A stretch of DNA of 64,000 bases from NCBI GenBank assembly GCA_040006935.1, contig JBDTVZ010000001.1, forward strand, positions 295,772-359,771, in the 5' to 3' direction. Numbering within the stretch: the stretch's first letter is position 1; each line of letters opens with the position of its first letter. The position numbers were made by a program, and so were the translations under genes. The notes below the pieces were generated by a model. The model searched no databases, was not told the origin of the DNA, and saw nothing but the letters and a program-made list of their open reading frames with translations. Source of the DNA: Candidatus Dojkabacteria bacterium (GTDB lineage: Bacteria; Patescibacteriota; Dojkabacteria; J137). Positions 3,539 through 59,722 of the stretch are shown piece by piece.

Positions 3539-3605
3539 ACTGAGTTGAAACTATAGTAATTAATATAATCAATGCCTGAGTTTAGTGTTAACTCAACATA
3601 TGATA

Positions 3606-3719
3606 AGGGCGTGTTACGCCCTAGTTCTTTTGTGTCATGGTGAGCGGAGTCGAACCATGTTCTATATTTCTGATGGGATTGACGTGCCCTCACTTCGTTC
3701 GGGCTCGCAATGACAACAA
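3606..3719. repeat. composite MITE-like element: an R1 copy plus terminal inverted repeats TTGTGTCAT...ATGACAACAA, ending in the GGCTCGCAATGACA module
   Basis: Direct repeat of 2749-2802. The right end matches the family ends at 9690-9704 and 51520-51535. Confidence 0.6.
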
Positions 3720-3787
3720 TAAATAATTATAAATGATCAATTATGAATTATAAGTCCTTATTAAAAAAATTGAGATTCTTCTATTAA

Positions 3788-3866
3788 CCTCCTGCCGTCA
3801 GGCACGGCAAGCTCCATGCCAGCATGCCTAAGGCAGCCGAGGAGGCAGGCAAGCAGGGCAGGCTCA
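3788..3866. repeat. GC-rich imperfect palindromic element
   Basis: CCTCCTGCCG...CGAGGAGGCAGG inverted arms in an otherwise AT-rich spacer. Confidence 0.5.
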
Positions 3867-3901
3867 TTCTGAGATTCTTCTTTTAATTTTTAATTATTAA
3901 T

Positions 3902-5438: not shown

Positions 5439-5481
5439 TTATTCTGTTATCTGTTATCTGTTATCTGTTATCTGTTATCTG
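5439..5481 (+). promoter_or_regulatory. tandem heptamer array (GTTATCT x5 plus one degenerate copy) ending 5 nt before the rnpA start
   Basis: Read directly from the sequence. Inverted copies CAGATAA lie at about 5395-5428. This sits in the divergent promoter region between the RNase J-like gene and rnpA. Confidence 0.6.
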
Positions 5482-5486
5482 TAAAT

Positions 5487-6752: not shown

Positions 6753-9329
6753 TTAATTATTAATAATTTGTAAATGTTGTTCTTTCAATTTCTCAACTTC
6801 TGTCGCCAAAATTTCCACATACAATGCATAACCAATTGTAGAAATATACCCACTCTGTTGGTCTCCTAAGATATTACCTGCACCTCTAATTTCTAAATCT
6901 CTACTTGCAATTCTAAACCCTGCGCCTAAGTCTTGATTATCCACCAAAGTTTGGAGTCTGTCTAGATATAATTTAGGTTTAATTTTCTTTTCATTCGCTT
7001 CTTCATTCGTAATTCGTAATTCGTCATTATCTTCTAATTTTGCCCCATCATAAAGTAGGTAACAGTATCCTTGTATATCTGATCTTCCAACTCTTCCTCT
7101 TAATTGATAAAGTTGTGATAATCCAAAATTTTGAGCTCTATTAATAATCATTGTATTAACATTTGGAATGTCTAAGCCATTTTCGATAATAGAAGTTGCA
7201 ATCAAAACGTCATGTTTTTTAATATAAAAATCAGACATAATTCTATCCAATTCCTGTGGACTCATTTGACCATGTGCATGAACAAATTTAATTCCAGGTA
7301 AAAGTCTTTTTAATTTTTCCTCAGTTGCTTTAATCGACATTACTTGGTTATGTACAAAGTAAACTTGGCCTCCTCTAGAAACTTCATACTCAATTGCTTT
7401 TATTGCTCTGTTAAGGCCTGCCCGCCCTCCTGACATGTCGGGAGCAGGCGGGTCGTTTTTAATAATTTCTGTTTTAACTGATTTTCTATTTACTGGAGGC
7501 GTAGATATAATGGATATATCTTGGATAGAAGAGAGTGCCATGCTCAAAGTTCTTGGAATTGGTGTCGCACTTACGGATAATACATGTACCCCATAGTTTA
7601 GAGTTTTGATTTTTTCTTTTTGTTTAACTCCAAACTTTTGTTCTTCGTCTACCACAAGAAGTTTTAACTTTTTAAATTTAACATCATTACTTAATAATCT
7701 GTGAGTTCCAACAACAATGTCCACTTTCCCAGTATTCATTTTATCTACAATTTGATTATTTTTTTCCTTTGTATTAAATCTTGAAATCATTTCGATCGAG
7801 AAAGGAAAGCTCTTGAACCTCTTTTTTAATACTTCAAAATGTTGTGCAGCTAGAATAGTTGTAGGAGCTAGGATGCCAACTTGGCCTCCACCTTCAACAA
7901 CTTTAAATGCAGCTCTCATTAAAACTTCTGTCTTTCCAAATCCAACATCTCCAACTAAAAGTCGATTCATTGGTTTATTTTTTGTTAAATCTGATAAAAC
8001 TTCGTTGATCGACCTGAGTTGATCTTCAGTTTCTTTAAAAGCAAATTCTTCAGTAAATATTTCATAATCTTTAGAATCTTTTTCTGAGATTGGTTCTGCA
8101 CTTGCCACTTCTCGTTTAGCGTAATGCTCAACAAGTTCGTGAGCCAAAAGACTTGTGGATTTTTTAATTTTCTCTTTTACTTGTGCCCATTGAACTCTTC
8201 CAAGTTTTGATAATCTAGGTTCTGAACCTTCGTTTCCAATAAATTTAGTAATTTTTTCAATCTGATTTATTGGAACAAATAGTTGATCTTCTCCAAAATA
8301 CCTAAGCTCTAAATATTCCATCATATTTCCATCTACTTCTTGTTGAGTTAAACCTTTGTATTCTGCAATTCCATAATCTTCGTGAACAACATAATCACCC
8401 ATTTCTATATTTCCTTCAAACTGCCTTAATAATTTTTGAATGTTTGAATTAAACTTCTTAGATTTTTCTGGACGAGTAAGGAAAATAGTCCCGTAAATTT
8501 CTCTATCAGTGAAAACTGCGATCTTAAGAGACTCTGAAATGAACCCAGCTGCAAGGTTAAGGGTCTTGAGTTGATGTGAGATTGTGTTACGAGTAAGTCC
8601 AGTGACTGAGTCCTCTTCAATATTTAACTCAGAATAGTTAGTACTTAATCTGTTGACTGTTTCATTGCTGCTTTTTATTATAATCTCGTAACTCAGTTTC
8701 CTCATTCTCTCGACCTCTAGCTCGAAAATATTAATTTTCGAATAGAACAGAGGAGGGAAGGTAAAGTCTGAATTCATTACATCAAACCCAGAAGGAGAAA
8801 TTTCTCTTAACGAATTTACAAAGATCATCTTCTCAAGTTCATTATTTTTTAATTCGTCATTCGTAATTCGTAATTTTATAGATTCTCTTTCTGTCTTGTC
8901 CTCTATAATCACATCTGAAAGATAAAATCTCTTTATAGGCTCAATCTTTCGACCATATAGTTCGTCAAATAAATACAATGACTCCATTTCTTCACCAAAG
9001 AATTCAATTCTGATTGGATGCTCGTAACCAATTGGCCATAATGAAACAATATCTCCCTTGATTGTATAGTCAAGCTTCTCGGTAATTTGTTCAACTCGAT
9101 TAAATATTGGGAGCTCTTCTTGTGCTACAGAAGTATCTCGAGAATTAACAGCTTGTCTTTCTAAATATTTCTTAATATTGCTAAAAGTTATGTCAGAATA
9201 AGGCTTGAGATCATTTAGGAAATCGACAATTTCTCTGGAATATAAATTTGAATATACAAAACCACCCTCGTTTTTTAAAAACAGGGGTATTAAATGCGGA
9301 AGGGTTTTTATTAACTTTATTCGTTGCAT
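6753..9329 (-). CDS. mfd: transcription-repair coupling factor, N-terminally short form (858 aa)
   Basis: Walker A GFGKT, DEEQ box, and helicase C-terminal region QLRGRVGRS. It lacks the N-terminal UvrB-homology region of the roughly 1150-aa canonical Mfd. Confidence 0.85.
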   Translation of the reverse strand: MQRIKLIKTLPHLIPLFLKNEGGFVYSNLYSREIVDFLNDLKPYSDITFSNIKKYLERQAVNSRDTSVAQEELPIFNRVEQITEKLDYTIKGDIVSLWPIGYEHPIRIEFFGEEMESLYLFDELYGRKIEPIKRFYLSDVIIEDKTERESIKLRITNDELKNNELEKMIFVNSLREISPSGFDVMNSDFTFPPLFYSKINIFELEVERMRKLSYEIIIKSSNETVNRLSTNYSELNIEEDSVTGLTRNTISHQLKTLNLAAGFISESLKIAVFTDREIYGTIFLTRPEKSKKFNSNIQKLLRQFEGNIEMGDYVVHEDYGIAEYKGLTQQEVDGNMMEYLELRYFGEDQLFVPINQIEKITKFIGNEGSEPRLSKLGRVQWAQVKEKIKKSTSLLAHELVEHYAKREVASAEPISEKDSKDYEIFTEEFAFKETEDQLRSINEVLSDLTKNKPMNRLLVGDVGFGKTEVLMRAAFKVVEGGGQVGILAPTTILAAQHFEVLKKRFKSFPFSIEMISRFNTKEKNNQIVDKMNTGKVDIVVGTHRLLSNDVKFKKLKLLVVDEEQKFGVKQKEKIKTLNYGVHVLSVSATPIPRTLSMALSSIQDISIISTPPVNRKSVKTEIIKNDPPAPDMSGGRAGLNRAIKAIEYEVSRGGQVYFVHNQVMSIKATEEKLKRLLPGIKFVHAHGQMSPQELDRIMSDFYIKKHDVLIATSIIENGLDIPNVNTMIINRAQNFGLSQLYQLRGRVGRSDIQGYCYLLYDGAKLEDNDELRITNEEANEKKIKPKLYLDRLQTLVDNQDLGAGFRIASRDLEIRGAGNILGDQQSGYISTIGYALYVEILATEVEKLKEQHLQIINN
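7425..7465. repeat. GC-rich palindromic element inserted in-frame inside mfd (encodes PPAPDMSGGRAGL)
   Basis: GGCCTGCCCGCCCTCCTGACATGTCGGGAGCAGGCGGG is about 75% GC inside a roughly 30% GC gene. Its arms match the intergenic copies at 9476-9510 and 47833-47866. Confidence 0.7.
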
Positions 9330-9410
9330 TAGAACGTAATTATAGCATGGGAAGTGTTAACCTGTTGTATATTTATTACGTAAGGACGCATCTGCCGTGT
9401 GTAGGGTTTG

Positions 9411-9467
9411 TAGACCTGAGATTCGTAGGGGACGCATTTATGCGTCCCCTATAAAAGTGCCAGAATC
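9411..9467. repeat. element family R2 (CTGAGATTCGTAGGGGACGCATTTATGCGTCCCCT...TGCCAGAATC)
   Basis: Second copy at 13231-13290. Contains the perfect hairpin GGGACGCATTTATGCGTCCC. Confidence 0.7.
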
Positions 9468-9475
9468 AAAGAGTA

Positions 9476-9564
9476 ATCCCCGCCTGCTCCCGACCAGCAG
9501 GAGGGCGGGCAGGCAACTTCATGCGGTATTGAACTGCCAGAAACAAAGAAGAGGTGGTAAGGTC
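9476..9564. repeat. element family R3 (CCCGCCTGCTCCCGAC..CAGGAGGGCGGGCAGGCAACTTCATGCGGTATTGAACTGCCAG...GAGGTGGTAAGGT)
   Basis: Near-identical copy at 47833-47914, and a partial copy at 13296-13343. Confidence 0.75.
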
Positions 9565-9606
9565 AAGATACAAAATGACGATAACTTGTGTATACTCAAC
9601 ATAGAT

Positions 9607-9704
9607 CAAGGGCGTGTTACCTGCCTGACTGCGCAGTCAGGCATGGCGCCCTTGACGGGATTGGCCACGCCTCGCTGATAAAATCAGCTCGGCTCGCAAT
9701 GACA
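9607..9704. repeat. element of the R1/R4 composite family (CAAGGGCG..perfect 18-bp palindrome CCTGACTGCGCAGTCAGG..CGCCCTTG, then ACGGGATTGGCCACGCCTCG...GGCTCGCAATGACA)
   Basis: The palindrome was read directly. The right module recurs at 3670-3719 and 51497-51535. Confidence 0.65.
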
Positions 9705-9714
9705 TCCAAGCAAC

Positions 9715-9750
9715 AAAAAAGGCTCCTTACGGAGCCTTTTATTACTTTTT
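9715..9750. terminator. bidirectional intrinsic terminator hairpin (AGGCTCC TTAC GGAGCCT flanked by A and T runs)
   Basis: GC stem with T runs on both strands, immediately downstream of the minus-strand DEAD-box helicase gene. Confidence 0.6.
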
Positions 9751-9761
9751 CAGATTTCTAG

Positions 9762-13222: not shown

Positions 13223-13230
13223 TGTAAGGA

Positions 13231-13290
13231 CTGAGATTCGTAGTGGACGCATTTATGCGTCCACTCATAGATTGCCAGATCCAGCTTAGA
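13231..13290. repeat. element family R2 copy
   Basis: CTGAGATTCGTAGTGGACGCATTTATGCGTCCACT matches 9420-9455. Confidence 0.7.
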
Positions 13291-13295
13291 TCCAA

Positions 13296-13343
13296 CCCCA
13301 CCTATCTTTAACTGCCTTGTGAGTAAATGAGGTGGTAAGGTTC
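13296..13343. repeat. partial R3 copy (AACTGCC..GAGGTGGTAAGGT module)
   Basis: Matches 9528-9564 and 47880-47914. Confidence 0.55.
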
Positions 13344-13378
13344 ATAAATATTATTCTCATTCTCTCCTCCTCTTTGTA

Positions 13379-13435
13379 ACCTGCCTGCCGTCCGTGTCTG
13401 CCGACAGGCGTCAGGCACAGAAGGAGGGAGGGAGG
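13379..13435. repeat. element family R5 (CCTGCCTGCCGTCCGTGTCTGCCGACAGGCGTCAGGCACAGAAGGAGG)
   Basis: Second copy at 40095-40142 (GCCTGCCTTCCGTGTCTGCCGACAGGCAAGGCAGGCACGGAAGG). Confidence 0.7.
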
Positions 13436-13470
13436 AGTTATTAACTCCCCTAACCCCTCTTAACAAGAGG
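13433..13470. repeat. element family R6 (GAGTTATTAACTCCCCTAACCCCTCTTAACAAGAGGGG)
   Basis: Inverted copy at 46070-46107. Confidence 0.65.
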
Positions 13471-13499
13471 GGAAACCTCACACTTCAATTTGAGAAACA

Positions 13500-13528
13500 G
13501 AAAGCGAGGTTAATAAACCTCGCTTCCC
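13500..13528 (-). terminator. hairpin AAGCGAGGT..ACCTCGCTT downstream of typA, a candidate intrinsic terminator
   Basis: 9-bp stem followed on the minus strand by a T-rich stretch. Confidence 0.4.
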
Positions 13529-13546
13529 AGCCCACTTATTTTAATT

Positions 13547-16445: not shown

Positions 16446-17960
16446 TTGAACTTTAATCCATACAAAATAATTAAATATCAGTTATATCTTTTTCAATTAG
16501 AAGAATATGATGGCAGGAGATATCTAGATGCAATACTTCATAAAGGATTAATCCCTACAAGTTCGCTAAGAAAAGAATTACAATGGACATTGAAAGCAAA
16601 ATTAATATTTCTAATATCATTAATACTTCAAATCGCAGTGGCTGCAGCAGATTCTCATCTGATCGGTCTAATTTTGTTTAACTCCACACTCGTATTAATT
16701 ATTATCTTAATTTTTGAATTATTCCTTGTTGCTTATCTGAGTTTTATATTCAATATTGTTGCCTCCTGGATATTATTCCCACTTGAATACTTTCAAAAAC
16801 AAAGATTAATAAACCAAGCGAAATCAAAATATCAAAAACTTAAAACTCAAAACTCAGAACTTAAAACTATCGGCATTACTGGTAGCTTTGGGAAAACAAC
16901 TATGAAAGAAACCTTAAGCACAATTCTTTCTGAGAAATTTAAAGTAGTAAGTACTCCAGAAAATATTAATACTCCTATCGGTTTAGCTAGAGTTATTCTA
17001 AGTTCATTGAACGAAAGCACTGAAGTATTTGTAGTTGAGATGGGAGAATACGTAAAAGGAGATGTAGATGCACTTTGTCAAATTGCAAAACCCGATATTT
17101 CTGTTATTACTGGAATAAACGAAGCTCACTTAGAAAGATATGGAAGCATGAAGAATGCTGTTGATACAAAATTTGAAATTGTTGAAAATACTCCTGAGGG
17201 TGGATTAGTTGTTTTAAATGGTAATGACAAATTAACAACTGAGAACTACGAAAGATTTACAAAAAACAAAAGAGTAGAGTGGTTTAATTCTGAAAGTTCC
17301 CCGCCTGTTTACCTGACGAATGGCAAGGCTCCTGACGCAGGAGGGCGGGCAGGTAAGTTTAAAGTTTTAAGTTCTAAGTTTGACATTGAGAAATTAGTCA
17401 GAAGAATTGAAATTCAAACCCCTACATCAGCTCTTTCAGCTCAAACAAATATTATTGCCGAATATATTGGAGGGAATATACTTGCTTCGATGATTGTTGG
17501 AACAGAGTTAGGAATGAGTGAAGCTCAAATAAAATTAGGAATTACTCAGTTAAAACCTGCTCCTTATAGATTAGAAGTTAAGAAGAATGGCGATATAGTG
17601 GTCATAGATGACACTTATAACGGTAATTCAGATGGAATTAAAGCTGGAATTAAATTACTTTCTGAATTTACTAATAGAAGAAAAGTTTATGTAACTCCTG
17701 GACTTGTAGAAACTGGTGAACTTAAGGAAGAAATTCATAAGGAAATTGGTAAACAATTAGCTTCTGTTGCGGATTTAGTAATATTAACAAAGAATTCTGC
17801 AACACCATTTATCGCTGAAGGATTGAAAGAAGCAGGATTTACAGAAGATAAAATAGTTTGGTACGAGACATCAAAGGAAACTTACGAAAAATTAAGAGAG
17901 AATCTACAAACTGGAGATGTTGTTATGATGCAGAACGATTGGAGCGATAATTATTTCTAA
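16446..17960 (+). CDS. murF: Mur ligase family protein, MurF-like (UDP-MurNAc-tripeptide--D-Ala-D-Ala ligase), with an unusual polytopic membrane N-terminus
   Basis: GITGSFGKTT P-loop and a DDTYNGN C-terminal motif. The first roughly 135 aa are hydrophobic helices instead of the normal MurF domain 1. Adjacent to ddl. Confidence 0.65.
   Translation: MNFNPYKIIKYQLYLFQLEEYDGRRYLDAILHKGLIPTSSLRKELQWTLKAKLIFLISLILQIAVAAADSHLIGLILFNSTLVLIIILIFELFLVAYLSFIFNIVASWILFPLEYFQKQRLINQAKSKYQKLKTQNSELKTIGITGSFGKTTMKETLSTILSEKFKVVSTPENINTPIGLARVILSSLNESTEVFVVEMGEYVKGDVDALCQIAKPDISVITGINEAHLERYGSMKNAVDTKFEIVENTPEGGLVVLNGNDKLTTENYERFTKNKRVEWFNSESSPPVYLTNGKAPDAGGRAGKFKVLSSKFDIEKLVRRIEIQTPTSALSAQTNIIAEYIGGNILASMIVGTELGMSEAQIKLGITQLKPAPYRLEVKKNGDIVVIDDTYNGNSDGIKAGIKLLSEFTNRRKVYVTPGLVETGELKEEIHKEIGKQLASVADLVILTKNSATPFIAEGLKEAGFTEDKIVWYETSKETYEKLRENLQTGDVVMMQNDWSDNYF
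17299..17354. repeat. GC-rich R3-arm element in-frame inside the murF-like gene (encodes SPPVYLTNGKAPDAGGRAGK)
   Basis: CCCGCCTG...CAGGAGGGCGGGCAGG is identical to the arm of the intergenic copies at 9495-9510 and 47850-47866. Confidence 0.65.
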
Positions 17961-17966
17961 ACATGC

Positions 17967-18058
17967 ATTGTGTCATCCCGAGCGAAGTCGAGGGATCTAT
18001 AACCACAGAAGTTAAAGATTTCTCGACTCGGCTAAAGCCTCGCTCGAAATGACACAAT
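17967..18058. mobile_element. 92-bp MITE-like element with perfect 10-bp terminal inverted repeats ATTGTGTCAT / ATGACACAAT
   Basis: The inverted repeats were read directly. The subterminal CCCGAGCGAAG / CTCGCTCGAA are also inverted. It lies between the murF-like gene and ddl. Confidence 0.55.
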
Positions 18059-23595: not shown

Positions 23596-23859
23596 GTGAA
23601 TATGTACAAAAGAATACCAGTAGAAATCAAAAATGAAGTTTTGCAAAAAGTGCGTAATGGAGAAAAGGTAATAGATTTAGCAAGACTTTATGGAATTGGA
23701 GATAAAACCATTTATCAATGGTTAAAAGAATCTGTAAAACAAGAAGTATCAATATGGGAACATAGAAGGATAAAAGCAGAAAATGAAGAGCTAAAAAGAA
23801 TTCTAGGAATGGTAATGCTGGAACTTGAGAGGAAAAAAAAAGGTGGAGATAATAAATAG
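23596..23859 (+). CDS. IS3-family transposase OrfA (helix-turn-helix)
   Basis: 87 aa, ending just after the A9 slippery run (23833-23841). Confidence 0.8.
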   Translation: MNMYKRIPVEIKNEVLQKVRNGEKVIDLARLYGIGDKTIYQWLKESVKQEVSIWEHRRIKAENEELKRILGMVMLELERKKKGGDNK

Positions 23860-24655
23860 CTCAACAAACAAAAAACTAATAGCAAAAGTTGCAAAAATTA
23901 ATCACAAAGATATTTACTACAAATCGAGAATGGAAGATAAAGATTTCAAATTAATCGAAAAAATTACCACAATGCATAAAAGCCATCCATCATATGGATA
24001 TCTAAGAGCAGCAATAGAACTTGGTATTAACAAAAAACGCACTCAAAGAGTTATGGCAAAATACAGCATTAGAGCTCCTAGAAGAAAAGTTAGGAAATTC
24101 AGCACTACGCAATGTGTAGAAAATACTAGCTATACAAATCTAATTAAAGATTTAGAAATAAAAAGACCTTATCAGCTACTGTGTACTGATTTAACATATA
24201 TTAAATTTCAAGGGAAATTCATTTATCTGGGAACAGTTGAAGATATATTTACTAGAGAAATATTATCTGCTAATTTATCCGATAAACATGATAGCCAATT
24301 AGCTCTAAGTATAGCTAGAGAAGCTATCAACAAATCCAATGGTAATACACAGATATTTCATTCAGATCAAGGTTCTGAATTTATGGCTCAGAGTGTTACA
24401 GGTTTTATTGAATCAAAGAATGTAAAAGTTTCAGTAAGTGATAAAGGAAGTCCATGGCAAAATGGATATAAAGAATCTTTCTTTTCAAGATTTAAAGATG
24501 AGAATGGAGATTTGAGTAGATTTGATACTTTAGGTGAATTAACAGAAGAGATTTACAGTTATATTAACTATTACAATAAATATCGAATTCATACCAAACT
24601 CAAAATGAGTCCTGTTCAATTTAAAGCTACTCTCGTAGAATCTAGTCTTAAATAA
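23825..24655 (+). CDS. IS3-family transposase OrfB (DDE/rve integrase core), expressed by a -1 frameshift from orfA
   Basis: Reading frame is -1 relative to orfA, at A AAA AAA AAG. It has the DDE-type core (CTDLTYI...HSDQGSEF...SPWQNGYKESFF). Confidence 0.8.
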   Translation: MRGKKKVEIINSSTNKKLIAKVAKINHKDIYYKSRMEDKDFKLIEKITTMHKSHPSYGYLRAAIELGINKKRTQRVMAKYSIRAPRRKVRKFSTTQCVENTSYTNLIKDLEIKRPYQLLCTDLTYIKFQGKFIYLGTVEDIFTREILSANLSDKHDSQLALSIAREAINKSNGNTQIFHSDQGSEFMAQSVTGFIESKNVKVSVSDKGSPWQNGYKESFFSRFKDENGDLSRFDTLGELTEEIYSYINYYNKYRIHTKLKMSPVQFKATLVESSLK

Positions 24656-38290: not shown

Positions 38291-40024
38291 ATGAGAAAAA
38301 AGTTAGTAATAATAGGCCTAGGAGTATTGTTCCTACTCTCAATTCTGGTAAATGGTTCTCCATTTATATTTGGAGATGGTTATGGATATTTTCACAATGC
38401 AAAAACTTTAGTAACAACTGGTAGTTTTTTAGAATTAAAAGAACCTGAGTATTTTCCTTATACTGGGCATGCAGTCACAGAGCAAAATGGGAAATTTGTA
38501 ACATCATATCCTCCTGGAAGTTCAATCTTACTTTGGCCATTTTTGACTGTTTCTAAATTTTTCGATTCTGGGACTATTTATACAGATTATTATAAAGCTT
38601 TTGACGGGCATTCTGTCGCTGATGGATTAGCAGTTTTACTTGCAGCCAGTTTTTATGCATTTCTAAGTTTAGTAATTATTTATAAAATTTTAAAAAGTTT
38701 AGGATTCAATTCAAAAATTTCCTTAATATCAGTTGTTGTTGTTTACATTGGAAGTTATGCTTTAAGTTACACAGAACAATTTGCATCATATTCACATATT
38801 TATGAGATCTTTGCAGTTTCAACACTCTTATACTTTTTAATTCAGTTTGGGAAAAAATTTGAATATAAATATACACTTTTTGCTGGAGCAGCTGCAGGTT
38901 TATTAGTTTTAATTCGACCAGTTGATGTAGTGATTGTAATTCCTATTTTATTCTTTGTATTTGCTTATAGAAATACTAAATCAAGTATTTTATTTATCCT
39001 AGGTGCAATTCCCTCAGCATTAATTTTCTTTCTTTATAATACAATTAATTTCGGAAACCCTTTATCTACAGGTTACGGTTCTTCCGAAAAATTATTCGAT
39101 TTTACAAAATTTAACTTAGTGAACTTACTATTTTCTGATGTACGAGGTTGGTACATTTATTCTCCTGTAATGTTAATTGGAAGTATTGGATTATTAATTT
39201 ATGCTTGGAGAAATAGACCATCATTTTTAATTTATTTAGCTCCATGCATCTTACTAATTTTAACTTATTCATTTTGGCCAAATTGGTGGGCAGGAGATAG
39301 TTTAGGACAAAGGTTTTTCCTAGTTTTAATTCCATTTATGGCAATTGGAATTGCGGTGTCTTTGCGAGGAGCGCAGCGACAAAGCAATCTCATACAAACA
39401 ATAGCTATATTTTTCATCGCTACACTTACTATCTATTCACTGACAATTACAATTCTTTACAGAATTACACCAACTGATGAGCTTTACAAAACGAATGCTG
39501 TTACAGCGGAAAAATATCCGGAAGTTACACCAGCCGAGCGCTTTACACCTTTTGATATTTTGAATTATCATAAAGAATTAATAGATCAAGGAGAATTTAA
39601 ATTTCCTAATAAATTAATTCAAGGATTTAACGGAGGTAGAAGTTTACTCTTATTAGCATTAGGACAAACTTACCCCATAGCGAAACTAGAAAAAATTTCT
39701 GACTTAACGTTTATAATTCATTTAATTCCAAATAATATTAATTCCCCGGTTATATCTAATGTTCGAATCGGCATACAGCAGAGTAGTAATTATTATGTGT
39801 TTACGTTTAAAAATGTAGATCTTTCAAAAACTTCCGAAATTCAGCTTGATTGTTCGATAGAGAGTGATTGTGTAATTAAAAATAGTATTAATGAATTTAC
39901 CAAAGAAGTCTTGAGTACGACTGAAATAACTTCAAAGCAAATAGAATTAAGCTCGGATCTAAAAATTGATTTCGAAGCAGGTGAGAATATTAAACTTGTA
40001 GATTATAAACTGAAGAATTTATAG
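38291..40024 (+). CDS. polytopic membrane glycosyltransferase, GT39/GT83 (PMT/ArnT)-like
   Basis: About 12 TM helices plus a C-terminal soluble domain. This architecture is common in CPR genomes. I could not confirm the Asp-Glu catalytic dyad by eye. Confidence 0.5.
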   Translation: MRKKLVIIGLGVLFLLSILVNGSPFIFGDGYGYFHNAKTLVTTGSFLELKEPEYFPYTGHAVTEQNGKFVTSYPPGSSILLWPFLTVSKFFDSGTIYTDYYKAFDGHSVADGLAVLLAASFYAFLSLVIIYKILKSLGFNSKISLISVVVVYIGSYALSYTEQFASYSHIYEIFAVSTLLYFLIQFGKKFEYKYTLFAGAAAGLLVLIRPVDVVIVIPILFFVFAYRNTKSSILFILGAIPSALIFFLYNTINFGNPLSTGYGSSEKLFDFTKFNLVNLLFSDVRGWYIYSPVMLIGSIGLLIYAWRNRPSFLIYLAPCILLILTYSFWPNWWAGDSLGQRFFLVLIPFMAIGIAVSLRGAQRQSNLIQTIAIFFIATLTIYSLTITILYRITPTDELYKTNAVTAEKYPEVTPAERFTPFDILNYHKELIDQGEFKFPNKLIQGFNGGRSLLLLALGQTYPIAKLEKISDLTFIIHLIPNNINSPVISNVRIGIQQSSNYYVFTFKNVDLSKTSEIQLDCSIESDCVIKNSINEFTKEVLSTTEITSKQIELSSDLKIDFEAGENIKLVDYKLKNL

Positions 40025-40094
40025 GACTTTACCACCTGCATTACTCGTCTGTTATAAAGAAAACAGAGTTACTCAGACCTTTGTGTTATTTCGC

Positions 40095-40142
40095 TTGCCT
40101 GCCTTCCGTGTCTGCCGACAGGCAAGGCAGGCACGGAAGGGG
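40095..40142. repeat. R5 palindromic element between convergent genes
   Basis: Copy of 13379-13435. Confidence 0.7.
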
Positions 40143-40146
40143 TTAT

Positions 40147-42982: not shown

Positions 42983-43585
42983 TTAAGATTTTCTACTTAC
43001 AAATTTATTTTCTTTTATATAAAATCTATAATCAAATTCCTTAGCTTTAGATATTCCAACTCTTTTAGTTTTAATAATCTTCGATTCAGGTAATTTAAAC
43101 CCATCATCCATAATATAGATCTCTGATTTTTCTGAAGTTAAATCAATTCCATCTAATTCTTTTGTAATTCCTAAAGCTTTGCATAACTTTCCTGGTCCTG
43201 AAGTAAGGCTCTTTTCATCCGCCTTCGCTAACGCTTCGGCGGACAAGTTCCTTAGCTCTTTCATTTTATCTATTCCATCAATTGGTTCTAAAGCTCTAAT
43301 CAAAACACTTGTTGGAACTTCTGCAACAACATCCAGACAAAAGTGAGTATGAATAGAGTAAATGTAAGAATTTCCAGGTTTAGAAAATAGAGATTTATTC
43401 CTTTTGGTTTCTCCTTTAAAAGCATGTGCGGCTTCATCTTGGTTTGCAAGATAGGCTTCTACTTCTACAATACGGCCAGAAATAATTTGGCCGTTCAAAT
43501 TACGAACTAGAACCTTTCCTAAAAGTTCAGGAGCGAGTCTTATAGCATTGCGATTGTAGAAAGATTGATTTAGAATTTGCATCAT
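42983..43585 (-). CDS. mpg: 3-methyladenine DNA glycosylase (MPG/AAG family)
   Basis: AIRLAPELLGKVLVR...GRIVEVEAY...GNSYIYSIHTHFCLDVV is characteristic of the Mpg family. Confidence 0.7.
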   Translation of the reverse strand: MMQILNQSFYNRNAIRLAPELLGKVLVRNLNGQIISGRIVEVEAYLANQDEAAHAFKGETKRNKSLFSKPGNSYIYSIHTHFCLDVVAEVPTSVLIRALEPIDGIDKMKELRNLSAEALAKADEKSLTSGPGKLCKALGITKELDGIDLTSEKSEIYIMDDGFKLPESKIIKTKRVGISKAKEFDYRFYIKENKFVSRKS

Positions 43586-43677: not shown

Positions 43678-43709
43678 CTGACTGCGAGAATCGAACTCAC
43701 ACCCTACTG
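43678..43709 (-). other. tRNA 3'-end-like fragment (GTGAG TTCGATT CTCGC AGTCAGC) immediately downstream of tRNA-Thr
   Basis: T-arm-like and acceptor-like sequence with no 5' half. A hairpin GCTTAT CCCG ATAAAGC lies between it and the tRNA. Confidence 0.25.
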
Positions 43710-43722
43710 CTTATCCCGATAA

Positions 43723-43795
43723 AGCTGGAAGTGAGATTTGAACTCACGATCTACGGTTTACGATACCGTTGCTTTACCAACTAAGCCATTCCAGC
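43723..43795 (-). tRNA. tRNA-Thr (anticodon CGU)
   Basis: I folded it by hand as a cloverleaf: acceptor GCTGGAA/TTCCAGC, D-stem GCTT/AAGC, anticodon stem ACGGT/ACCGT with loop ATCGTAA, T-arm GTGAG TTCAAAT CTCAC. No encoded CCA. Confidence 0.8.
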
Positions 43796-44127
43796 TTTAT
43801 CAGGACTCTCCATACTTGCCAGCCAGACTGGTCCCCTTGGACGGATGCTACATCGCCAATAAGCGAAATTATACATTAACCTATAGAAATTTTCTGAAAA
43901 GAAATATCATAATTTTCTAAATACTTCGATACAAACTAATTATACTGACAGGTAAAAACATTTGGACAGTATCTGTACGATCTTATATAGATGATTTTTA
44001 TTTGATTTTCTTTTTTAAATACCCTAAACTAAATCTAGTGACATATACGTTACTAAATTGCTCGATATATCTCCATACATAAAGATAAAAAGCAATTATT
44101 AAAAATAATATTTTTTATTTTAGGTTT

Positions 44128-46052: not shown

Positions 46053-46069
46053 AAATCGTAAATAACATT

Positions 46070-46107
46070 CCCCTCTTTGTAAGAGGGGTTAAGGGAGTTA
46101 TAAAACA
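46070..46107. repeat. R6 element (inverted orientation)
   Basis: CCCCTCTTTGTAAGAGGGGTTAAGGGAGTTATAA is the reverse complement of 13433-13470 with a few mismatches. Confidence 0.65.
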
Positions 46108-46111
46108 ATAA

Positions 46112-46149
46112 GGACCGCCCAAGAACCTTATCCTGCTTTCGGGGCGGTA
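46112..46149. repeat. R7 element (GGACCGCCCAAGAACCTTATCCTGCTTTCGGGGCGGTA hairpin)
   Basis: Related copy at 51142-51179 (GGACCGCACAAGATCTTTGTCGTGCTTTCGGTGCGGTA). Confidence 0.65.
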
Positions 46150-46151
46150 TT

Positions 46152-46230
46152 AACTCCTCCCGACCTCCTCCCCGCCTGCCTCTTTAAAATAGGTCTAAAA
46201 TTTGAAATCGGCGGGCAGGTTAAAAAGAGG
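46152..46230. repeat. long imperfect GC-rich palindrome (CTCCTCCCGACCTCCTCCCCGCCTGCCTCTTT...CGGCGGGCAGGTTAAAAAGAGGAGGAG)
   Basis: The inverted arms were read directly. Confidence 0.5.
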
Positions 46231-46237
46231 AGGAGAA

Positions 46238-47746: not shown

Positions 47747-47788
47747 ATGATTGATTATAAATTAAATACGATGAGGTGTCTTTAATAA

Positions 47789-47914
47789 CCCCTCCTGATC
47801 CTAACGGATCTTCCTCCCCCTAGGGAGGTGGCGACTGCCTGCTCCTGACTAGCAGGAGGGCGGGGAGGCAACTTCATGCAGTAAGAAACTGCCAGGAGAG
47901 TAGGTGAGGTGGGC
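47789..47914. repeat. cluster of GC-rich elements including an R3 copy (47833-47914)
   Basis: GACTGCCTGCTCCTGACTAGCAGGAGGGCGGGGAGGCAACTTCATGCAGTAAGAAACTGCCAG..GGTGAGGTGGG matches 9476-9564. Confidence 0.7.
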
Positions 47915-48000
47915 TAAAGCCAACATAAATCTATGGCTCGCAAAGCTCGCTAAGATTTATAGCTGTAAATGTCATGAATAATGTATGATATATTATAAGT

Positions 48001-49113
48001 ATGGACGAAATCGGAACCGAAACTAAAAAGAAAGAACGATTGATAAGCAAATACTCACTCCCGATGATGAGAGAATACTTATCTAATTTGAAAAACAATA
48101 ACTATTCCAAAGAAACTTTAGAGAATTATGCCAGAGATTTAGAAATTTTTTCCTCTTACTTAGCTTACTTAGATATCACTTTCGATAAAATAGATAAACT
48201 ATTAATTTCCGATTATAAAGGATTTTTAAGAGAACAAAATTACCTTCCAATACTACATAAATATCAAGCAGGTAGAGAAATCACAGATATTGATGTAGAT
48301 AAAAGTAAACAAGATATTTCCGAATTAAAAAAAGCAATGTATAAAGGACAATTATCCGACGCTTCTGTAAATCGAATGCTTTCATCGTTAAGATCTTACC
48401 TATCTTTTTTAGTGGACGTTGATCAAGCGATTCCAATCCCACCAAGTGCAATTAAAATGATTAAAGCTGAAAAAAAAGAGAAACAAGTTGCAGAACTAAG
48501 TGAGCTTGTGCATTTAATTGAAAGTCCGTTTCAATTTGAAGCAGAGCCAATCATTAAAGCGAGGAATAGAGCAATTTTAGAATTAATATTTTCGACTGGA
48601 ATGAGAATTTCGGAAGTAGTTAACTTAAATCGTGATCAAGTGAAGATGGATAATAACCAAATTGTTGATGATAAAACCTATATTATGGGAAAAGGTAAAA
48701 AACAAAGATTTGTATATTTAACTGAACGTGCAATTCAATTTATGAATGAATATTTGAAAATGCGAACTGACGATTTCCCTGCAATGTTTATTCCGACAAA
48801 AGGAACTCGAAAAGCTACAGAAAATCCATATATTGTAAGGCTTTCTCAAAATTATATTCAAATGAAAATTAAAGATTATCGAACACGATTAGGAATTGTA
48901 GTTCCAACATCCGCACATAGCTTAAGGCATGGTTTTGCAACTTACATTGCAGAGGAAGGAGCAAATCCCGCAGCAATACAAAGGCTTCTAGGGCATTCCT
49001 CATTGCAAACAACTTCTAAATATGTTCACGCTTCGGATAAATTTGCAGAGGATGCTCATAGAAAGTTCCATCCATTACAGGAAAATGACAAATTACGAGT
49101 GACGAATGACTAA
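48001..49113 (+). CDS. tyrosine site-specific recombinase (XerC/XerD/phage-integrase family)
   Basis: R...HSLRHGFAT...LLGHSSLQTTSKYVH catalytic region (R-H-R-Y), with an N-terminal SAM-like core-binding domain. Confidence 0.75.
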   Translation: MDEIGTETKKKERLISKYSLPMMREYLSNLKNNNYSKETLENYARDLEIFSSYLAYLDITFDKIDKLLISDYKGFLREQNYLPILHKYQAGREITDIDVDKSKQDISELKKAMYKGQLSDASVNRMLSSLRSYLSFLVDVDQAIPIPPSAIKMIKAEKKEKQVAELSELVHLIESPFQFEAEPIIKARNRAILELIFSTGMRISEVVNLNRDQVKMDNNQIVDDKTYIMGKGKKQRFVYLTERAIQFMNEYLKMRTDDFPAMFIPTKGTRKATENPYIVRLSQNYIQMKIKDYRTRLGIVVPTSAHSLRHGFATYIAEEGANPAAIQRLLGHSSLQTTSKYVHASDKFAEDAHRKFHPLQENDKLRVTND

Positions 49114-51136: not shown

Positions 51137-51141
51137 AAAAT

Positions 51142-51290
51142 GGACCGCACAAGATCTTTGTCGTGCTTTCGGTGCGGTAAACATCCACCGTCCAGCTAAA
51201 GCTGGCCACCTCCTTCAAAGGAGGAATTCGTAGGGTCAGCCCACCTGACTTAACCTAAAGGGAGGTATTATCATCAACGTCAACTGATTA
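51142..51290. repeat. R7 copy plus further small palindromes (CCAGCTAAAGCTGG, CCTCCTTCAAAGGAGG)
   Basis: The hairpins were read directly. Confidence 0.55.
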
Positions 51291-51439
51291 TAGCCACATT
51301 TATATTCTCGGTAAAAGGGAGTTTGAGGGAAAATTCTTTTGACTTCCACGTTCCAGCTCCAAAATTATTTTCTCTCAAAACTTTTTTTGCTTACTTTTTT
51401 TAGTTATAAAAAAAGTAAGGTAAGAAAACCTCTCGAGTA

Positions 51440-51537
51440 ATGGTTCGAGAGCCTCATCATGACAATAGGCAGAAATCCCATCGGGAAATCAAATCACGGG
51501 ATCGCCACGCTCGTCTTCGGCTCCTCGCAATGACAAC
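51440..51537. repeat. R4-type element ending ...ACGGGATCGCCACGCTCGTCTTCGGCTCCTCGCAATGACAACA
   Basis: The right module matches 9657-9704 and 3670-3719. Confidence 0.6.
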
Positions 51538-51559
51538 ATTCACCTGATATAATAAATTT

Positions 51560-52441
51560 ATGAAAACAATCAACGGAACTGAAATTGCAGAATCAATCCT
51601 ACACAGTCTTAAAGAAAAGATTACCTCACTCGACCTGCACCCTAAGCTAGCAATAGTCTTAGCCTCAGACGACGAATCCAGCAAAATTTATACCTCGATG
51701 AAATCTAAAAAAGCCGAAAGCATTGGAATCCAAACAGAACTACATACTCTTGATCTAAAAGACAATAATTTAAAAGAAACTTTAATCAGCAAACTCAAGC
51801 AACTTAATGATGATAAAGAAGTACATGGAATACTTTTACAATTACCTTTAGCTGAAAGTATTAAAGAATATTCGGATGAAATTATAAACACAATAGATCC
51901 CAGCAAAGATGTAGATGGACTTACAGCAATAAACCAAGGAAGATTAATGCAAGGTTTAAAAACTTTCAGGCCTGCAACAGTAGATGCCATATTGGAATGT
52001 ATAAAATTTACTTGTCCGAATCGAGATGAGGAAATAGAAGGATATCTTAGCTACCTTGATACATTTTTAAGAGGAAAGAATGTAGTGATTATTAATAACT
52101 CAAACCTTATCGGGAAACCACTTAGTGTGCTCTTGGAGAGTTATAATACATCCGTTTCTGTTCTAAATAAGTATTCCTTAGACCTCAAATCCTTTACACA
52201 ACAGGCAGATATTTTAATTACTGCAACAGGTGCAACTTCTATTATTGATCATCTGGATGTTAAAGATAATTGTACAATTATCGATGTAACTAGCGTTAAA
52301 AAAGAAGGCCAAATTTTAGGAGATGTTACAATTTCGAAAGAATTAGAAGAAAAAGTTGAATGGATAACTCCCGTCCCAGGAGGAGTGGGTCCGCTTACTA
52401 TTGCATGCTTATTGAGGAATTTGGTCAGAGCTATTACTTGA
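51560..52441 (+). CDS. folD: bifunctional methylenetetrahydrofolate dehydrogenase/cyclohydrolase
   Basis: KDVDGL, the IITATGA Rossmann segment, and PVPGGVGPLT at the C-terminus. Confidence 0.85.
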   Translation: MKTINGTEIAESILHSLKEKITSLDLHPKLAIVLASDDESSKIYTSMKSKKAESIGIQTELHTLDLKDNNLKETLISKLKQLNDDKEVHGILLQLPLAESIKEYSDEIINTIDPSKDVDGLTAINQGRLMQGLKTFRPATVDAILECIKFTCPNRDEEIEGYLSYLDTFLRGKNVVIINNSNLIGKPLSVLLESYNTSVSVLNKYSLDLKSFTQQADILITATGATSIIDHLDVKDNCTIIDVTSVKKEGQILGDVTISKELEEKVEWITPVPGGVGPLTIACLLRNLVRAIT

Positions 52442-57262: not shown

Positions 57263-58819
57263 TTGGCTGAACAATACAAAAGACCAAAACCAGTTGTAAT
57301 GATTTCTATGGACGGAGTGGGCGTAGCTCCACAAGGTCCTGGTAATGCCGTTATGCTTGCCAATACCGCAAATTTAGATAGATTTTGGCCATTATATCCC
57401 CATACCTACTTAGAAGCATCTGGACTACATGTTGGATTACCTCCTGGTACAGACGGAAATTCTGAGGTGGGGCACATGGCAATTGGGTCAGGAAGAGTTA
57501 TTTATCAGAACTTGCCACGTATTGATAATGCTATTAACAATGGCTCTTTTTTCCAGAATCCTGCTATTAAGAAGGCATTTGAACATACCAAAGAGAACCA
57601 TAGTAAGGTACATGTTATGGGTATTGTAGGAAATGGAATGGTTCATGGTTCTGTAGAACATTTACTCGCAATTATAAAGTTTGCAGTACAAGAAAAAGTA
57701 GATCCAGATAGATTATTTATACATGCCTTTACTGATGGGCGAGACTCTGCGCCAGATTCTGCTTTAGATGTATTGGATAAGATTGAAGCATATTGTTTAC
57801 AAAAAAGAATGGGTAGAATTGCAACTGTTGTGGGTAGAGCTTACGCAATGGATAGAAATAGAAATTGGGCTAGAACTAAAATAGCTTATGACTTGTTGGC
57901 TGAAGGGAAAGGAAGAATTATAAATAACTATAAAAAAGCTATCGAAGAATCATATAACAATAAAGTCTTTGATGAATATTTAGATCCGATTTGTATTGTT
58001 CCTGATGGAGAACAACCAGTTAAAATTGAAAAAGGAGATTCCGTTATTTTCTTTAACTTCAGACCAGATAGAGCAGTTCAATTAACAATGGCGATAGAAG
58101 ACAAAGAGTTTAAAGGCTTTGAACGAGTATTAATCCCAGATATTTTCTTTGTAGGAATGGCAGATTATGAGAATGGATTCCCTTCAAATCCTGCTTTCCC
58201 TCCTGAGAAAGTAACTACGCCTTTAGGTAAAGTTATTTCAGACGCGGGATTAAAGCAATTGAGAATTGCTGAATCTGAGAAGTTTCCACACGTTACATAT
58301 TTCTTTAATGGGCAAAATAAAGAGATATACCCCGGTGAAACATGGTTGGAAGTACCGTCTCCAAAGGATGTTGCAACTTATGATCAAAAGCCTGAAATGA
58401 GCCAGATTTTAGTTACTGATATTTTAGTAGATAAAATTGAAAAAGAAGATTTTGATTTTATCCTTGTGAACTTTGCAGGTCCAGACATGGTTGCTCATAC
58501 AGGAGTAATTCCACCTGCTGTAAAAGCTATGGAAGTGTGCGATCAATGCGTTGGCAGAATAGTAGAGGCAACTTTAAAAAGAGATGGTGTAGTTGTAATA
58601 AGTTCGGACCATGGGAATTGCGAAGAAATGATTGATTTGCAAACTGGCGAAGCAGATACAAAACACTCTACAAATCCAGTACCTTTCATATTAATTAAGA
58701 ATGGTCTTGTATCGAGAGAATTACCAGTTGGAGGTTTAAGTGATATTGCACCAACAATCTTAGGTATTATGGGTATGGAAATTCCAGCAGAAATGACTGG
58801 ACGAGACCTACTTAGTTAA
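57263..58819 (+). CDS. gpmI: 2,3-bisphosphoglycerate-independent phosphoglycerate mutase
   Basis: SMDGVGVAP and GNSEVGHMAIGSGR motifs. Confidence 0.9.
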   Translation: MAEQYKRPKPVVMISMDGVGVAPQGPGNAVMLANTANLDRFWPLYPHTYLEASGLHVGLPPGTDGNSEVGHMAIGSGRVIYQNLPRIDNAINNGSFFQNPAIKKAFEHTKENHSKVHVMGIVGNGMVHGSVEHLLAIIKFAVQEKVDPDRLFIHAFTDGRDSAPDSALDVLDKIEAYCLQKRMGRIATVVGRAYAMDRNRNWARTKIAYDLLAEGKGRIINNYKKAIEESYNNKVFDEYLDPICIVPDGEQPVKIEKGDSVIFFNFRPDRAVQLTMAIEDKEFKGFERVLIPDIFFVGMADYENGFPSNPAFPPEKVTTPLGKVISDAGLKQLRIAESEKFPHVTYFFNGQNKEIYPGETWLEVPSPKDVATYDQKPEMSQILVTDILVDKIEKEDFDFILVNFAGPDMVAHTGVIPPAVKAMEVCDQCVGRIVEATLKRDGVVVISSDHGNCEEMIDLQTGEADTKHSTNPVPFILIKNGLVSRELPVGGLSDIAPTILGIMGMEIPAEMTGRDLLS

Positions 58820-58900
58820 TTATAAATTAAGAATTAAAAATTATAAGAAGTAAATAGATGACTTCATCAACTTATAATTTGTAATTTATAATTTATAATT

Positions 58901-59722
58901 TTGCACTTGTTTCTTCTTTTCGACATTGGTGGCACTCATACAAGATTTAGTATTGCTCCAGATATAAATACCCTTAGCGACCCATTGATTATAGATACTC
59001 CAAAAAATTTTGATGAGTTTGAATCTAGATTAAAATATTTTGTTGAAAAGAATCTAAAGAATTCCAAACTTGAGAAAATAGTTGGAGGGATCGCAGGAGT
59101 ACTTGATGAAGATGGAGCTAAACTTTATAACTCTCCTAACTTACAGGATTGGATTGGAAAGCCTCTTAAAGAGGTAATAATTCGAGTAACAGGATGTGAA
59201 GATGTGACTATAGAAAATGATGCAAATTTGTGTGGATTAGGCGAAGCAGTGAATGGAGGAGGAAAAGATTATGACATTGTAGCTTATATTACAATTGGTA
59301 CTGGTATTGGAGGTACAAGAATAGTGAATAAAAAGATTGATGAAAATGTAATGGGATTTGAGCCCGGCCATCAGATTATTAGAATTTCGGATGAAAGAAA
59401 AATAGAAACTTTCGAACAACTTGCAGGAGGAAATGCTATTTTTAAAAAATATGGTAAAAGAGCAAGTGAAATTGAAGATTTACAAATCATTGATGATATT
59501 TATTTTTACACAGCTTGTGGAATTCATAATGCAATTTTGCATTGGTCTCCAGATGTTGTTGTATTAGGAGGATCCTTAGGTGAAGATATGGATTTACCGA
59601 AGTTAAAATCATATTTAACTGAGATAATGCATATCTTTAAGAAAATACCACCTTTAAAATCAGCTAAGCTTGGGAAAACTAATGGTGTAATTGGCGCTTT
59701 CCATTTATTAAAATTTGGTTAA
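58901..59722 (+). CDS. ROK/glucokinase-family sugar kinase (short form)
   Basis: DIGGTHTRF N-terminal phosphate-1 motif, GIGGT, and an ASKHA fold. The start codon is TTG. Confidence 0.55.
   Translation: MHLFLLFDIGGTHTRFSIAPDINTLSDPLIIDTPKNFDEFESRLKYFVEKNLKNSKLEKIVGGIAGVLDEDGAKLYNSPNLQDWIGKPLKEVIIRVTGCEDVTIENDANLCGLGEAVNGGGKDYDIVAYITIGTGIGGTRIVNKKIDENVMGFEPGHQIIRISDERKIETFEQLAGGNAIFKKYGKRASEIEDLQIIDDIYFYTACGIHNAILHWSPDVVVLGGSLGEDMDLPKLKSYLTEIMHIFKKIPPLKSAKLGKTNGVIGAFHLLKFG

Follow-up and report, generated by a model that had tools for sequence, protein, structure and literature searches.

A very small GC-rich hairpin repeat lies in frame within mfd and a Mur ligase gene of a Candidatus Dojkabacteria bacterium

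Genes and hairpin copies in the window

We examined a 64,000-nucleotide stretch of DNA (hereafter 'the window') from a Candidatus Dojkabacteria bacterium (GenBank assembly GCA_040006935.1, contig JBDTVZ010000001.1, positions 295,772 to 359,771 of the forward strand), in which a small GC-rich hairpin element is present in five copies, two of them within the reading frames of mfd and of a MurF-like Mur ligase gene. The window is coding dense, with a GC content of 28-36% in 2-kb bins (genome ~32% GC). The two host genes, the five copies, and an extension that follows two of the copies are located as follows:

6753-9329, minus strand: mfd, transcription-repair coupling factor, 858 aa (Pfam UvrB_inter, CarD_TRCF_RID, DEAD and Helicase_C)
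7417-7452, minus strand: copy in mfd, 36 nt, CCCGCCTGCTCCCGAC-ATGT-CAGGAGGGCGGGCAGG on the coding strand, encoding PPAPDMSGGRAG (Mfd residues 627-638)
9479-9513, plus strand: intergenic copy, 35 nt, loop CAG, between a DEAD-box helicase gene and mfd
9514-9557, plus strand (partner at 47869-47912): 3' extension of the intergenic copies, GCAACTTCATGC...AACTGCCAG...GAGGTGG
16446-17960, plus strand: MurF-like Mur ligase gene, 504 aa, with an N-terminal helical extension (Pfam Mur_ligase_M and Mur_ligase_C; MurF matches in the PDB)
17300-17353, plus strand: copy in the MurF-like gene, 54 nt, CCCGCCTG-[TTTACCTGACGAATGGCAAGG]-CTCCTGAC-G-CAGGAGGGCGGGCAGG, an 18-residue insertion (residues ~285-303)
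46171-46219, plus strand: fifth member, intergenic, 49 nt, ends CCCGCCTGCC...GGCGGGCAGG, AT-rich interior
47834-47868, plus strand: intergenic copy, 35 nt, loop TAG, degenerate 5' end (ACTGCCTG) and one mismatch in the right arm, upstream of a tyrosine recombinase gene

The copy in mfd is a GC-rich imperfect palindrome without mismatches to either arm; in translation, L is the residue directly after PPAPDMSGGRAG. The copy in the MurF-like gene translates as (S)PPVYLTNGKAPDAGGRAG(K) and retains the whole right arm, with a left arm interrupted by 21 nt and a loop of one base. CCTGACG flanks the 21-nt extra piece on both sides, and we read this copy as the same element, secondarily expanded within its left arm.

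The 16-mer right arm (CAGGAGGGCGGGCAGG) occurs four times in the window at two or fewer mismatches, against an expectation of 0.01, and none of 100 shuffled sequences reached four; the left arm occurs three times against 0.02 expected. The repeat is therefore not a product of chance. The ~45-nt 3' extension follows only the intergenic copies at 9479-9513 and 47834-47868, which together with it form a direct-repeat family (D3) of 76 nt and 82% identity; neither the coding copies nor those of other genomes have it.

A model that had read only the sequence (the original prediction) had described a 41-bp palindrome in mfd at 7425-7465. That palindrome is real and its peptide was given correctly, while its position and length were off by ~8-13 nt. 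The related MurF-like copy and the arm in common with the intergenic 'R3' elements were found as described, and both host frames indeed remain open, with no frameshift or stop.

The element does not belong to a known RNA family: Rfam gave no match there, whether with the gathering threshold or with E<=1. A tRNA or tmRNA origin was rejected, as the only tRNA genes in the window (tRNA-Thr and tRNA-Lys) lie away from the element. No T-run of the kind found in intrinsic terminators follows the window copies (the next bases are CAACTT, CCTTAA or TAAGTT), and among copies elsewhere only one, in contig L007, has such a run.

The coding copies are insertions in protein loops

Both host genes are full length relative to their orthologs and have complete domain sets, and are thus not pseudogenes. 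The Mfd protein matches E. coli Mfd in the PDB at E = 5e-148, the MurF-like gene is annotated in the source record as UDP-N-acetylmuramoyl-tripeptide--D-alanyl-D-alanine ligase, and the best homologs of both proteins are Dojkabacteria proteins.

Alignment to orthologs, set in advance as the check on the original prediction, identified both segments as lineage-specific indels in loops, and no ancestral PDxGGRAG segment was present in the orthologs. Among 60 Mfd homologs the 12-residue segment was found in the window protein only. Where the window protein reads ...IIKND-PPAPDMSGGRAGL-NRAIKAIE..., its three closest homologs (75-77% identity) have ...IIKND-W-NKAVKAIE..., and a HMMER alignment to E. 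coli Mfd places a 12-residue gap exactly at the insert, between the two helicase lobes. Similarly, the three closest homologs of the MurF-like protein (69-71% identity) are 486 residues long, exactly 18 fewer than its 504, with the difference at the insert. At the DNA level the sites are empty in relatives (GAC/TGG AAT in L018 and TCG/AAA in L019, where the slash marks the insertion point), and the window genes differ from them by a clean +36 nt and +54 nt; no target duplication was seen in this codon-level comparison of the mfd and MurF-like sites. The junction-spanning peptides predicted for filled genes are ...IIKNDPPAPDMSGGRAGLNR..., ...KNDPPAPDMSGGRAGLNR... and ...SSPPVYLTNGKAPDAGGRAGKFK....

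AlphaFold models place both insertions in coil. In the MurF-like model (mean pLDDT 90.6) the only segment below 50 is 290-301, which lies within the insert between strands 276-280 and 306-313; in the Mfd model, strand 619-624 and helix 637-651 enclose the insert, which is coil and shows a local dip in pLDDT. The Mfd copy occupies the linker between the two motor lobes and the MurF-like copy a beta-hairpin loop. These comparisons show lineage-specific insertions, not ancestral sequence, and the two copies are recent and probably neutral passengers.

The loop in Mfd is a repeated target of insertion, with short, unrelated inserts in four further Mfd proteins of Dojkabacteria. Those inserts were considered as remnants of the element and rejected, as their DNA is not recognisably the same. 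E. coli Mfd also lacks another segment of ~20 residues, this one AT-rich (ELRITNEEANEKKIKPKLYLD; residues ~768-790, window ~6960-7030, minus strand), which is modelled with low confidence and recurs in some form in CPR (candidate phyla radiation, or Patescibacteria) homologs. Dojkabacteria Mfd proteins are all ~850 aa in length, compared with ~1150 aa in E. coli.

The element recurs in other CPR genomes

A scan with the exact arm pattern, covering one genome per species, returned 17 loci beyond the window, of which ten were kept. The other seven were set aside as chance matches: they are of high GC content (63-73%), lack the conserved ends, and belong to Microbacterium, Pseudarthrobacter, Acidimicrobiales, Syntrophothermus, Fimbriimonas, Propionibacteriaceae and Symbiobacteriaceae. 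The ten retained loci are found in metagenome-assembled genomes (MAGs) of 35-45% GC that are titled Candidatus Saccharibacteria, Candidatus Paceibacterota, Patescibacteria group or simply 'bacterium', and in one 2-kb contig that was binned with Scalindua. With exact arms again, a scan of metagenomes yielded 14 further contigs with the hairpin, partly from the same organisms.

At the eight end positions that the search pattern left free (5' CCC and 3' GCAGG), 79 of 80 bases agree over the ten genome matches, while the loop varies in both length (1-4 nt) and sequence. No family member was found in 33 kb of DNA from two close Dojkabacteria relatives (L018 and L019). Judged from these matches, Dojkabacteria and Paceibacterota-type genomes, at the least, contain the element. 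We found no published account of such elements in CPR bacteria in a literature search that included the arm sequences as queries and whose coverage leaves out most subscription journals.

Architecture and turnover of the element

Comparison of the copies suggests a family defined by its ends, 5'-CCCGCC(TG)...GGCGGGCAGG-3', with a variable interior and a total length of 18-56 nt; on the opposite strand the constant part reads as CCTG followed by a CCCGCC/GGCGGG stem. The R3 subfamily has the interior TGCTCCYGAC-loop-CAGGAG. The two strands differ in predicted folding: the CCTG-first strand folds at -11.3 kcal/mol (z = -3.2) and its complement at -8.5 kcal/mol (z = -1.25), because the common C variant gives G-T pairs on the former and C-A mismatches on the latter.

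Turnover is most visible in an RlmI-like methyltransferase, in which 23 of 120 homologs contain a family member, all at a single point (MMK/DF). Four peptide forms are found there (PARPPxSGAGG, PARNASxxxAGG, PASPSQGG and PARLGG), and the DNA forms include CCCGCCTGCTCCCGAC-G-CAGGAGGGCGGGCAGG, CCCGCCTGCATCGCTATGCGAAGCATTGCGGGCAGG and a minimal CCCGCC-TA-GGCGGGCAGG, with further interior variants at other loci. Carriers are scattered among non-carriers, the nearest neighbour of a carrier being itself a carrier in 8 of 23 cases against 4.3 expected (P = 0.11). In one close pair, P0244 (filled) and P0266 (empty), the genes differ by a clean 33 nt (ATG AAA [33 nt] GAT versus ATG AAG/AAT), without duplication and with a small cluster of substitutions beside the site. 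At three orthologous filled sites, 32 of 32 arm bases are kept where the flanks are ~75-80% identical; decayed copies with arm substitutions also exist (PARPTESGAGG, PARPSESGAGG and PARPPASRAGG).

The same methyltransferase (L006, L038 and L039) has a second hypervariable insertion region in the middle of the protein. In addition, the MMK/DF region of other homologs (P0246, P0284, P0322, P0283 and P0351) contains the recurrent inserted peptides PEDRLR, PKDGLL and LSAETLVKAG, which resemble translations of further GC-rich hairpin families.

Copies within genes obey a reading-frame rule

We classed copies as coding if they lie inside an open reading frame (ORF) whose identity is supported by Pfam, and counted each host gene once, so that the RlmI-like variants and orthologous copies count as one. 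The coding copies are the following:

Mfd, window: 36 nt
MurF-like ligase, window: 54 nt
RlmI-like methyltransferase, L006 with orthologous copies in L027 and L029: 33 nt; same-site variants in L034 and L035: 36 and 18 nt
S41 peptidase, L007: 33 nt
MurD-like ligase, L009: 36 nt
ComF-like phosphoribosyltransferase, L015: 33 nt
MreC, L016: 33 nt
YidC, L021: 33 nt
Penicillin-binding protein, L024: 33 nt
UvrB, L026: 36 nt
ParB-like protein, L021: 27 nt
MurC-like ligase, L009: 21 nt
TrmA-like methyltransferase, L036 (another Dojkabacteria genome), 8299-8346: 48 nt, in frame, resembling the window copy at 46171-46219

All 13 have lengths that are multiples of three (18, 21, 27, 33, 36, 48 or 54 nt) and are free of stops in the host frame. 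Copies that lie in no gene, or that precede the likely start codon, have lengths of 35, 35, 49, 34, 34, 35, 34, 35, 36, 36, 33, 31, 56 and 27 nt; 4 of these 14 are multiples of three, close to the one-third expected by chance. In the first set of copies the difference was 10 of 10 coding versus 3 of 11 non-coding (Fisher's exact test, P = 0.001), and six later copies served as a blind check of the rule, which all six fit. Four of the six possible readings are in use (PPAPDxGGRAG, RLLPTxQEGGQ, PARPPxSGAGG and LPALLxREQA); within verified genes, neither of the two Cys/Arg-rich readings occurred. From the multiple-of-three rule we infer that the coding copies are translated and have been filtered by frame.

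The UvrB protein of L026 also contains a segment, PRLASGKAG, at residues ~258-266 that may be another small hairpin insertion.

Origin and spread of the element

We consider it likely that the element is a tiny hairpin repeat, GC-rich and non-autonomous, which spreads both within AT-rich CPR genomes and from one to another. Copies would land in spacers and genes alike; inside genes, survival would require a length that is a multiple of three, no stop in frame, and a permissive surface loop. Those that survive would be transcribed and translated with their host, adding a Pro/Gly/Ala-rich peptide of 6-18 residues (for example PPAPDxGGRAG, RLLPTxQEGGQ or PARPPxSGAGG). By analogy with what has been proposed for the REP (repetitive extragenic palindrome) and RAYT (REP-associated tyrosine transposase) pairing, the most likely route of spread would be mobilisation in trans of the single-stranded hairpin by a structure- and end-specific enzyme in the style of IS200/IS605; that style of transposition leaves no target duplication, which fits the absence of duplication here. 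Filled alleles may additionally be carried between relatives by homologous recombination, as for GC42 of yeast mitochondria, and instability of the palindrome centre could generate the variable loops and interiors. The repetition of the element, its insertion polarity, frame filtering, loop location, reuse of sites, and spread over CPR lineages are established by the comparisons above; the trans-mobilisation is what we infer from them.

A search of ~60 window ORFs with Pfam recovered one IS3-like transposase pair and one tyrosine recombinase as the only mobility-type genes, the rest being housekeeping genes:

23596-24655: IS3-family insertion sequence, an HTH_Tnp_1 ORF overlapped by the rve integrase-core ORF that follows it (likely a frameshift pair)
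48001-49113: tyrosine recombinase gene (Phage_integrase with an N-terminal SAM-like domain), starting 130 nt after the copy at 47834-47868

The IS3-like element was rejected as a parent, its ends being unrelated to the hairpin elements, and the proximity of the recombinase gene to an intergenic copy may be coincidental.

Several points weigh against a mobile, read-through hairpin repeat. The Pfam search of the window ORFs found no mobilising enzyme and no HUH/Y1 gene (no Y1_Tnp match). No transposition intermediate was seen, which leaves true transposition putative, and ectopic or allelic recombination could be the source of part of the spread. Neither a target duplication nor a target consensus was found in the flanks of ~20 copies, and the three filled/empty pairs likewise lack a duplication. 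The scans required exact arms, so the conservation of the stems is partly an effect of ascertainment. Finally, the taxon labels of several MAGs are unreliable: L006 is titled Saccharibacteria, and the named relatives of its protein are Paceibacterota or Nomurabacteria.

The hairpin might instead be a selected DNA or RNA signal (for DNA uptake, for recombination, or as the binding site of a CPR-wide protein) whose nucleotide sequence is itself useful. Such a role would account for ends and stems that are near-identical over distinct CPR lineages (including positions left free in the search), for the intact arms at the three orthologous methyltransferase sites within diverged flanks, for the retention of GC-rich codons (CCT GCC CGC ... 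GGC GGG) in AT-rich genomes, and for the occupation of one site in many lineages. We nevertheless regard it as improbable. The closest relatives lack the element both at the two window sites and in the 33 kb of flanking DNA, carriers are phylogenetically scattered, and the T-run context of a terminator is missing. Known DNA-uptake signals occur at ~1 per kb, and the density here, 5 per 64 kb, is far below that. Copies with substituted arms exist and the exact-match search exaggerates conservation, both of which weaken the stems as proof of function and leave their conservation suggestive only.

Removal or bypass of the inserted bases, which would yield a protein without the extra peptide, appears very unlikely. 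A mini-intron, an archaeal bulge-helix-bulge intron, or a sequence like the 'byp' elements of yeast mitochondria could act in this way, and the element is computed to form a stable hairpin in mRNA; as Lang et al. reportedly found in 2014 (cited in PMC4478555), ribosomes bypass GC-rich mobile hairpins in Magnusiomyces mitochondria. A constraint on frame is, however, expected only under translation, and the finding that every coding copy is a stop-free multiple of three where non-coding copies mostly are not makes sense only if the copies are read through. The coding copies, at 18-54 nt, also have no splice or take-off/landing motif in common. We assign the lowest probability, that of a scarcely credible explanation, to an artefact, whether through error in MAG assembly or binning, convergent formation of palindromes by slippage, or decay of pseudogenes. 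Every sequence here is a metagenome assembly, and palindrome centres are known to be unstable; yet identical 32-nt arms recur in different flanks and in assemblies from many unrelated projects, assembly noise would not yield lengths consistent with frame, the host ORFs have their full length, every domain and folds modelled with high confidence, and chance is excluded by the shuffles.

Within our preferred explanation of a mobile hairpin repeat, a more specific idea is that a new enzyme, encoded by CPR bacteria or their phages, might recognise the ends CCCGCC...GGCGGGCAGG, inserting hairpins that leave no target duplication and coming back to the same sites time after time. Such a homing-like system would move horizontally over CPR classes and go on seeding new peptide loops into essential proteins, among them Mfd, Mur ligases, UvrB, YidC, MreC and ParB. 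We offer this as a speculation that is probably wrong in at least part.

Other hairpin modules and repeats in the window

Eight spacers are GC mosaics (40-47% GC) that combine several hairpin modules and resemble the arrays of bacterial interspersed mosaic elements (BIMEs) of E. coli; the modules recur between spacers. These spacers are:

2666-2809
3539-3901
9330-9761
13223-13546
40025-40146
46053-46237
47747-48000
51137-51559

Recurrent modules include a 54-nt repeat at 2748 and 3606 (98% identical), CCTGCCTGCCGTC...GACAGGC hairpins at 13378, 40093 and 3790, and CCCCTCTT-AACA-AGAGGGG at 13453 and 46070. A family of canonical REP form, in which GTAG precedes a GC-rich hairpin (TTCGTAGGGGACGCATTTATGCGTCCCC), is found at 9416-9464, 13231-13279 and ~51228 (family D6, with GTAG at 9423 and 13238). 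GTAG plus a hairpin also adjoins an R3 element in L025 and L016, and this family hints at a RAYT-type system in CPR genomes. The motif GCTCGCAATGACA, which reads ARND, ends several spacer arrays (3703, 9692, 51523 and 18042, and as the reverse complement at 39357).

The spacer between the MurF-like gene and ddl (17971-18058) is one large composite palindrome, GTGTCATCCCGAGCGAAGTCGAGGGATC ... GATTTCTCGACTCGGCTAAAGCCTCGCTCGAAATGACAC. Within a PMT_2-like ORF (38291-40024), a GC-rich palindromic stretch at 39350-39390 is related to GCTCGCAATGACA and encodes VSLRGAQRQSNL; it falls in a variable loop of normal length, and insertion could not be shown. The methylpurine DNA glycosylase (MPG) gene has a GC-rich palindrome, TCCGCCTTCGCTAACGCTTCGGCGGA, at 43203-43263 that encodes SAEALAKAD, which was rejected as an insertion because it adds no length relative to human AAG. 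A GC scan located further GC islands within window ORFs at 52353-52411 and 57298-57364.

The stretch at 43678-43720 (GACTGCGAGAATCGAACTCACACCC), which adjoins tRNA-Thr (43722-43796, minus strand), resembles the T-arm and acceptor end of a second tRNA and may be a tRNA fragment; neither ARAGORN nor Rfam made a call there. Perfect or near-perfect 7-nt tandem repeats lie directly upstream of two genes, TCTGTTA x5.7 before rnpA (5443-5482) and TTATAAT x4.3 before a ROK-family (glucokinase-like) gene (58872-58901).

Implications

CPR genomes are tiny and streamlined, and are usually thought to be poor in repetitive DNA. The window contradicts that view, with spacers that are mosaics of hairpin modules and at least one family that lies in frame in essential proteins. 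Three properties set the element apart: it is very small, it is defined by its ends, and it is found in essential genes of several CPR lineages. If the behaviour is general, it would add to Rickettsia and fungal mitochondria a third, independent case of selfish hairpins making protein segments in reduced, AT-rich genomes, and would strengthen the idea that hairpin insertion is a regular route of protein-loop evolution. It would also account for part of the length variation and of the Pro/Gly/Arg-rich inserts in CPR orthologs, warn of one origin of spurious small 'hypothetical proteins' in the annotation of MAGs, provide (through near-identical ends over CPR classes) a marker of DNA exchange among episymbionts, and point to a putative hairpin-handling enzyme.

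Comparison with known systems

The element is probably a selfish palindromic repeat that is read through inside genes; it behaves like the Rickettsia palindromic elements (RPEs) and the GC clusters of mitochondria, while being a member of neither, nor of the REP or MITE (miniature inverted-repeat transposable element) families.

Like RPEs, it is found as palindromic repeats in spacers and in frame in unrelated housekeeping genes, is lineage-specific, and encodes a peptide compatible with the fold of hosts that look functional. RPE-1 to RPE-10 are confined to Rickettsia and are about 100-150 bp in length (Ogata et al. 2000/2002, as summarised in PMC10969869), and each RPE family encodes a conserved peptide of ~30-50 aa, whereas the CPR element is 18-56 nt, 3-5 times shorter. 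It is set by ends of ~6-10 nt with a free interior, is read in at least four frames, and is present in several CPR lineages. Rickettsia is, moreover, an alphaproteobacterium and the host here is Candidatus Dojkabacteria. The RPE-like behaviour seen in the original prediction holds, but for behaviour only: judged against the description of RPEs, the shorter element, with no visible target duplication, does not belong to their families, and no relationship in sequence is known.

REPs are extragenic by definition, are typically present in hundreds of copies, are species-specific, start with GTAG, and are associated with a RAYT gene (TnpA-REP, HUH/Y1) that is usually flanked by REPs. The CPR element resembles them as a 20-40 nt imperfect GC-rich palindrome that follows a conserved tetranucleotide on one strand, without terminal inverted repeats of MITE type or target duplication, and resembles BIMEs in its mosaic intergenic arrays with other hairpin modules (9330-9761, 13223-13546 and 47747-48000). 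Its tetranucleotide is CCTG, however, and not GTAG; 2 of the 5 window copies and 13 copies overall are intragenic, and its sequence is common to distant lineages.

Some MITEs (ERIC, BOX and those of Anabaena) produce in-frame fusions (PMC10969869), and the CPR element is likewise a non-autonomous repeat that can be read as part of a host ORF. MITEs are, however, 50-500 bp in length, with the terminal inverted repeats of a parent insertion sequence and with target duplications, and the CPR element has none of these properties.

The byp elements are bypassed, whereas the multiple-of-three rule here points to read-through. A closer resemblance is to the GC clusters of yeast and other fungal mitochondria, such as GC42, which are exchanged between species by homologous recombination and are merged and shuffled into new variants (Wu & Hao 2015, PMC4478555). 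Those clusters are organellar, of other sequence, and have a putative AG target duplication (PMC4478555), whereas the CPR element is bacterial and shows no duplication in three pairs. Both are GC-rich hairpins of 30-50 nt whose genome is AT-rich; their stems are conserved, their loops vary, turnover between close relatives is fast, and occasional copies are coding. The yeast mitochondrial GC cluster is the closest counterpart of the CPR element as regards size and composition, the pattern of stem and loop, turnover, and horizontal exchange.

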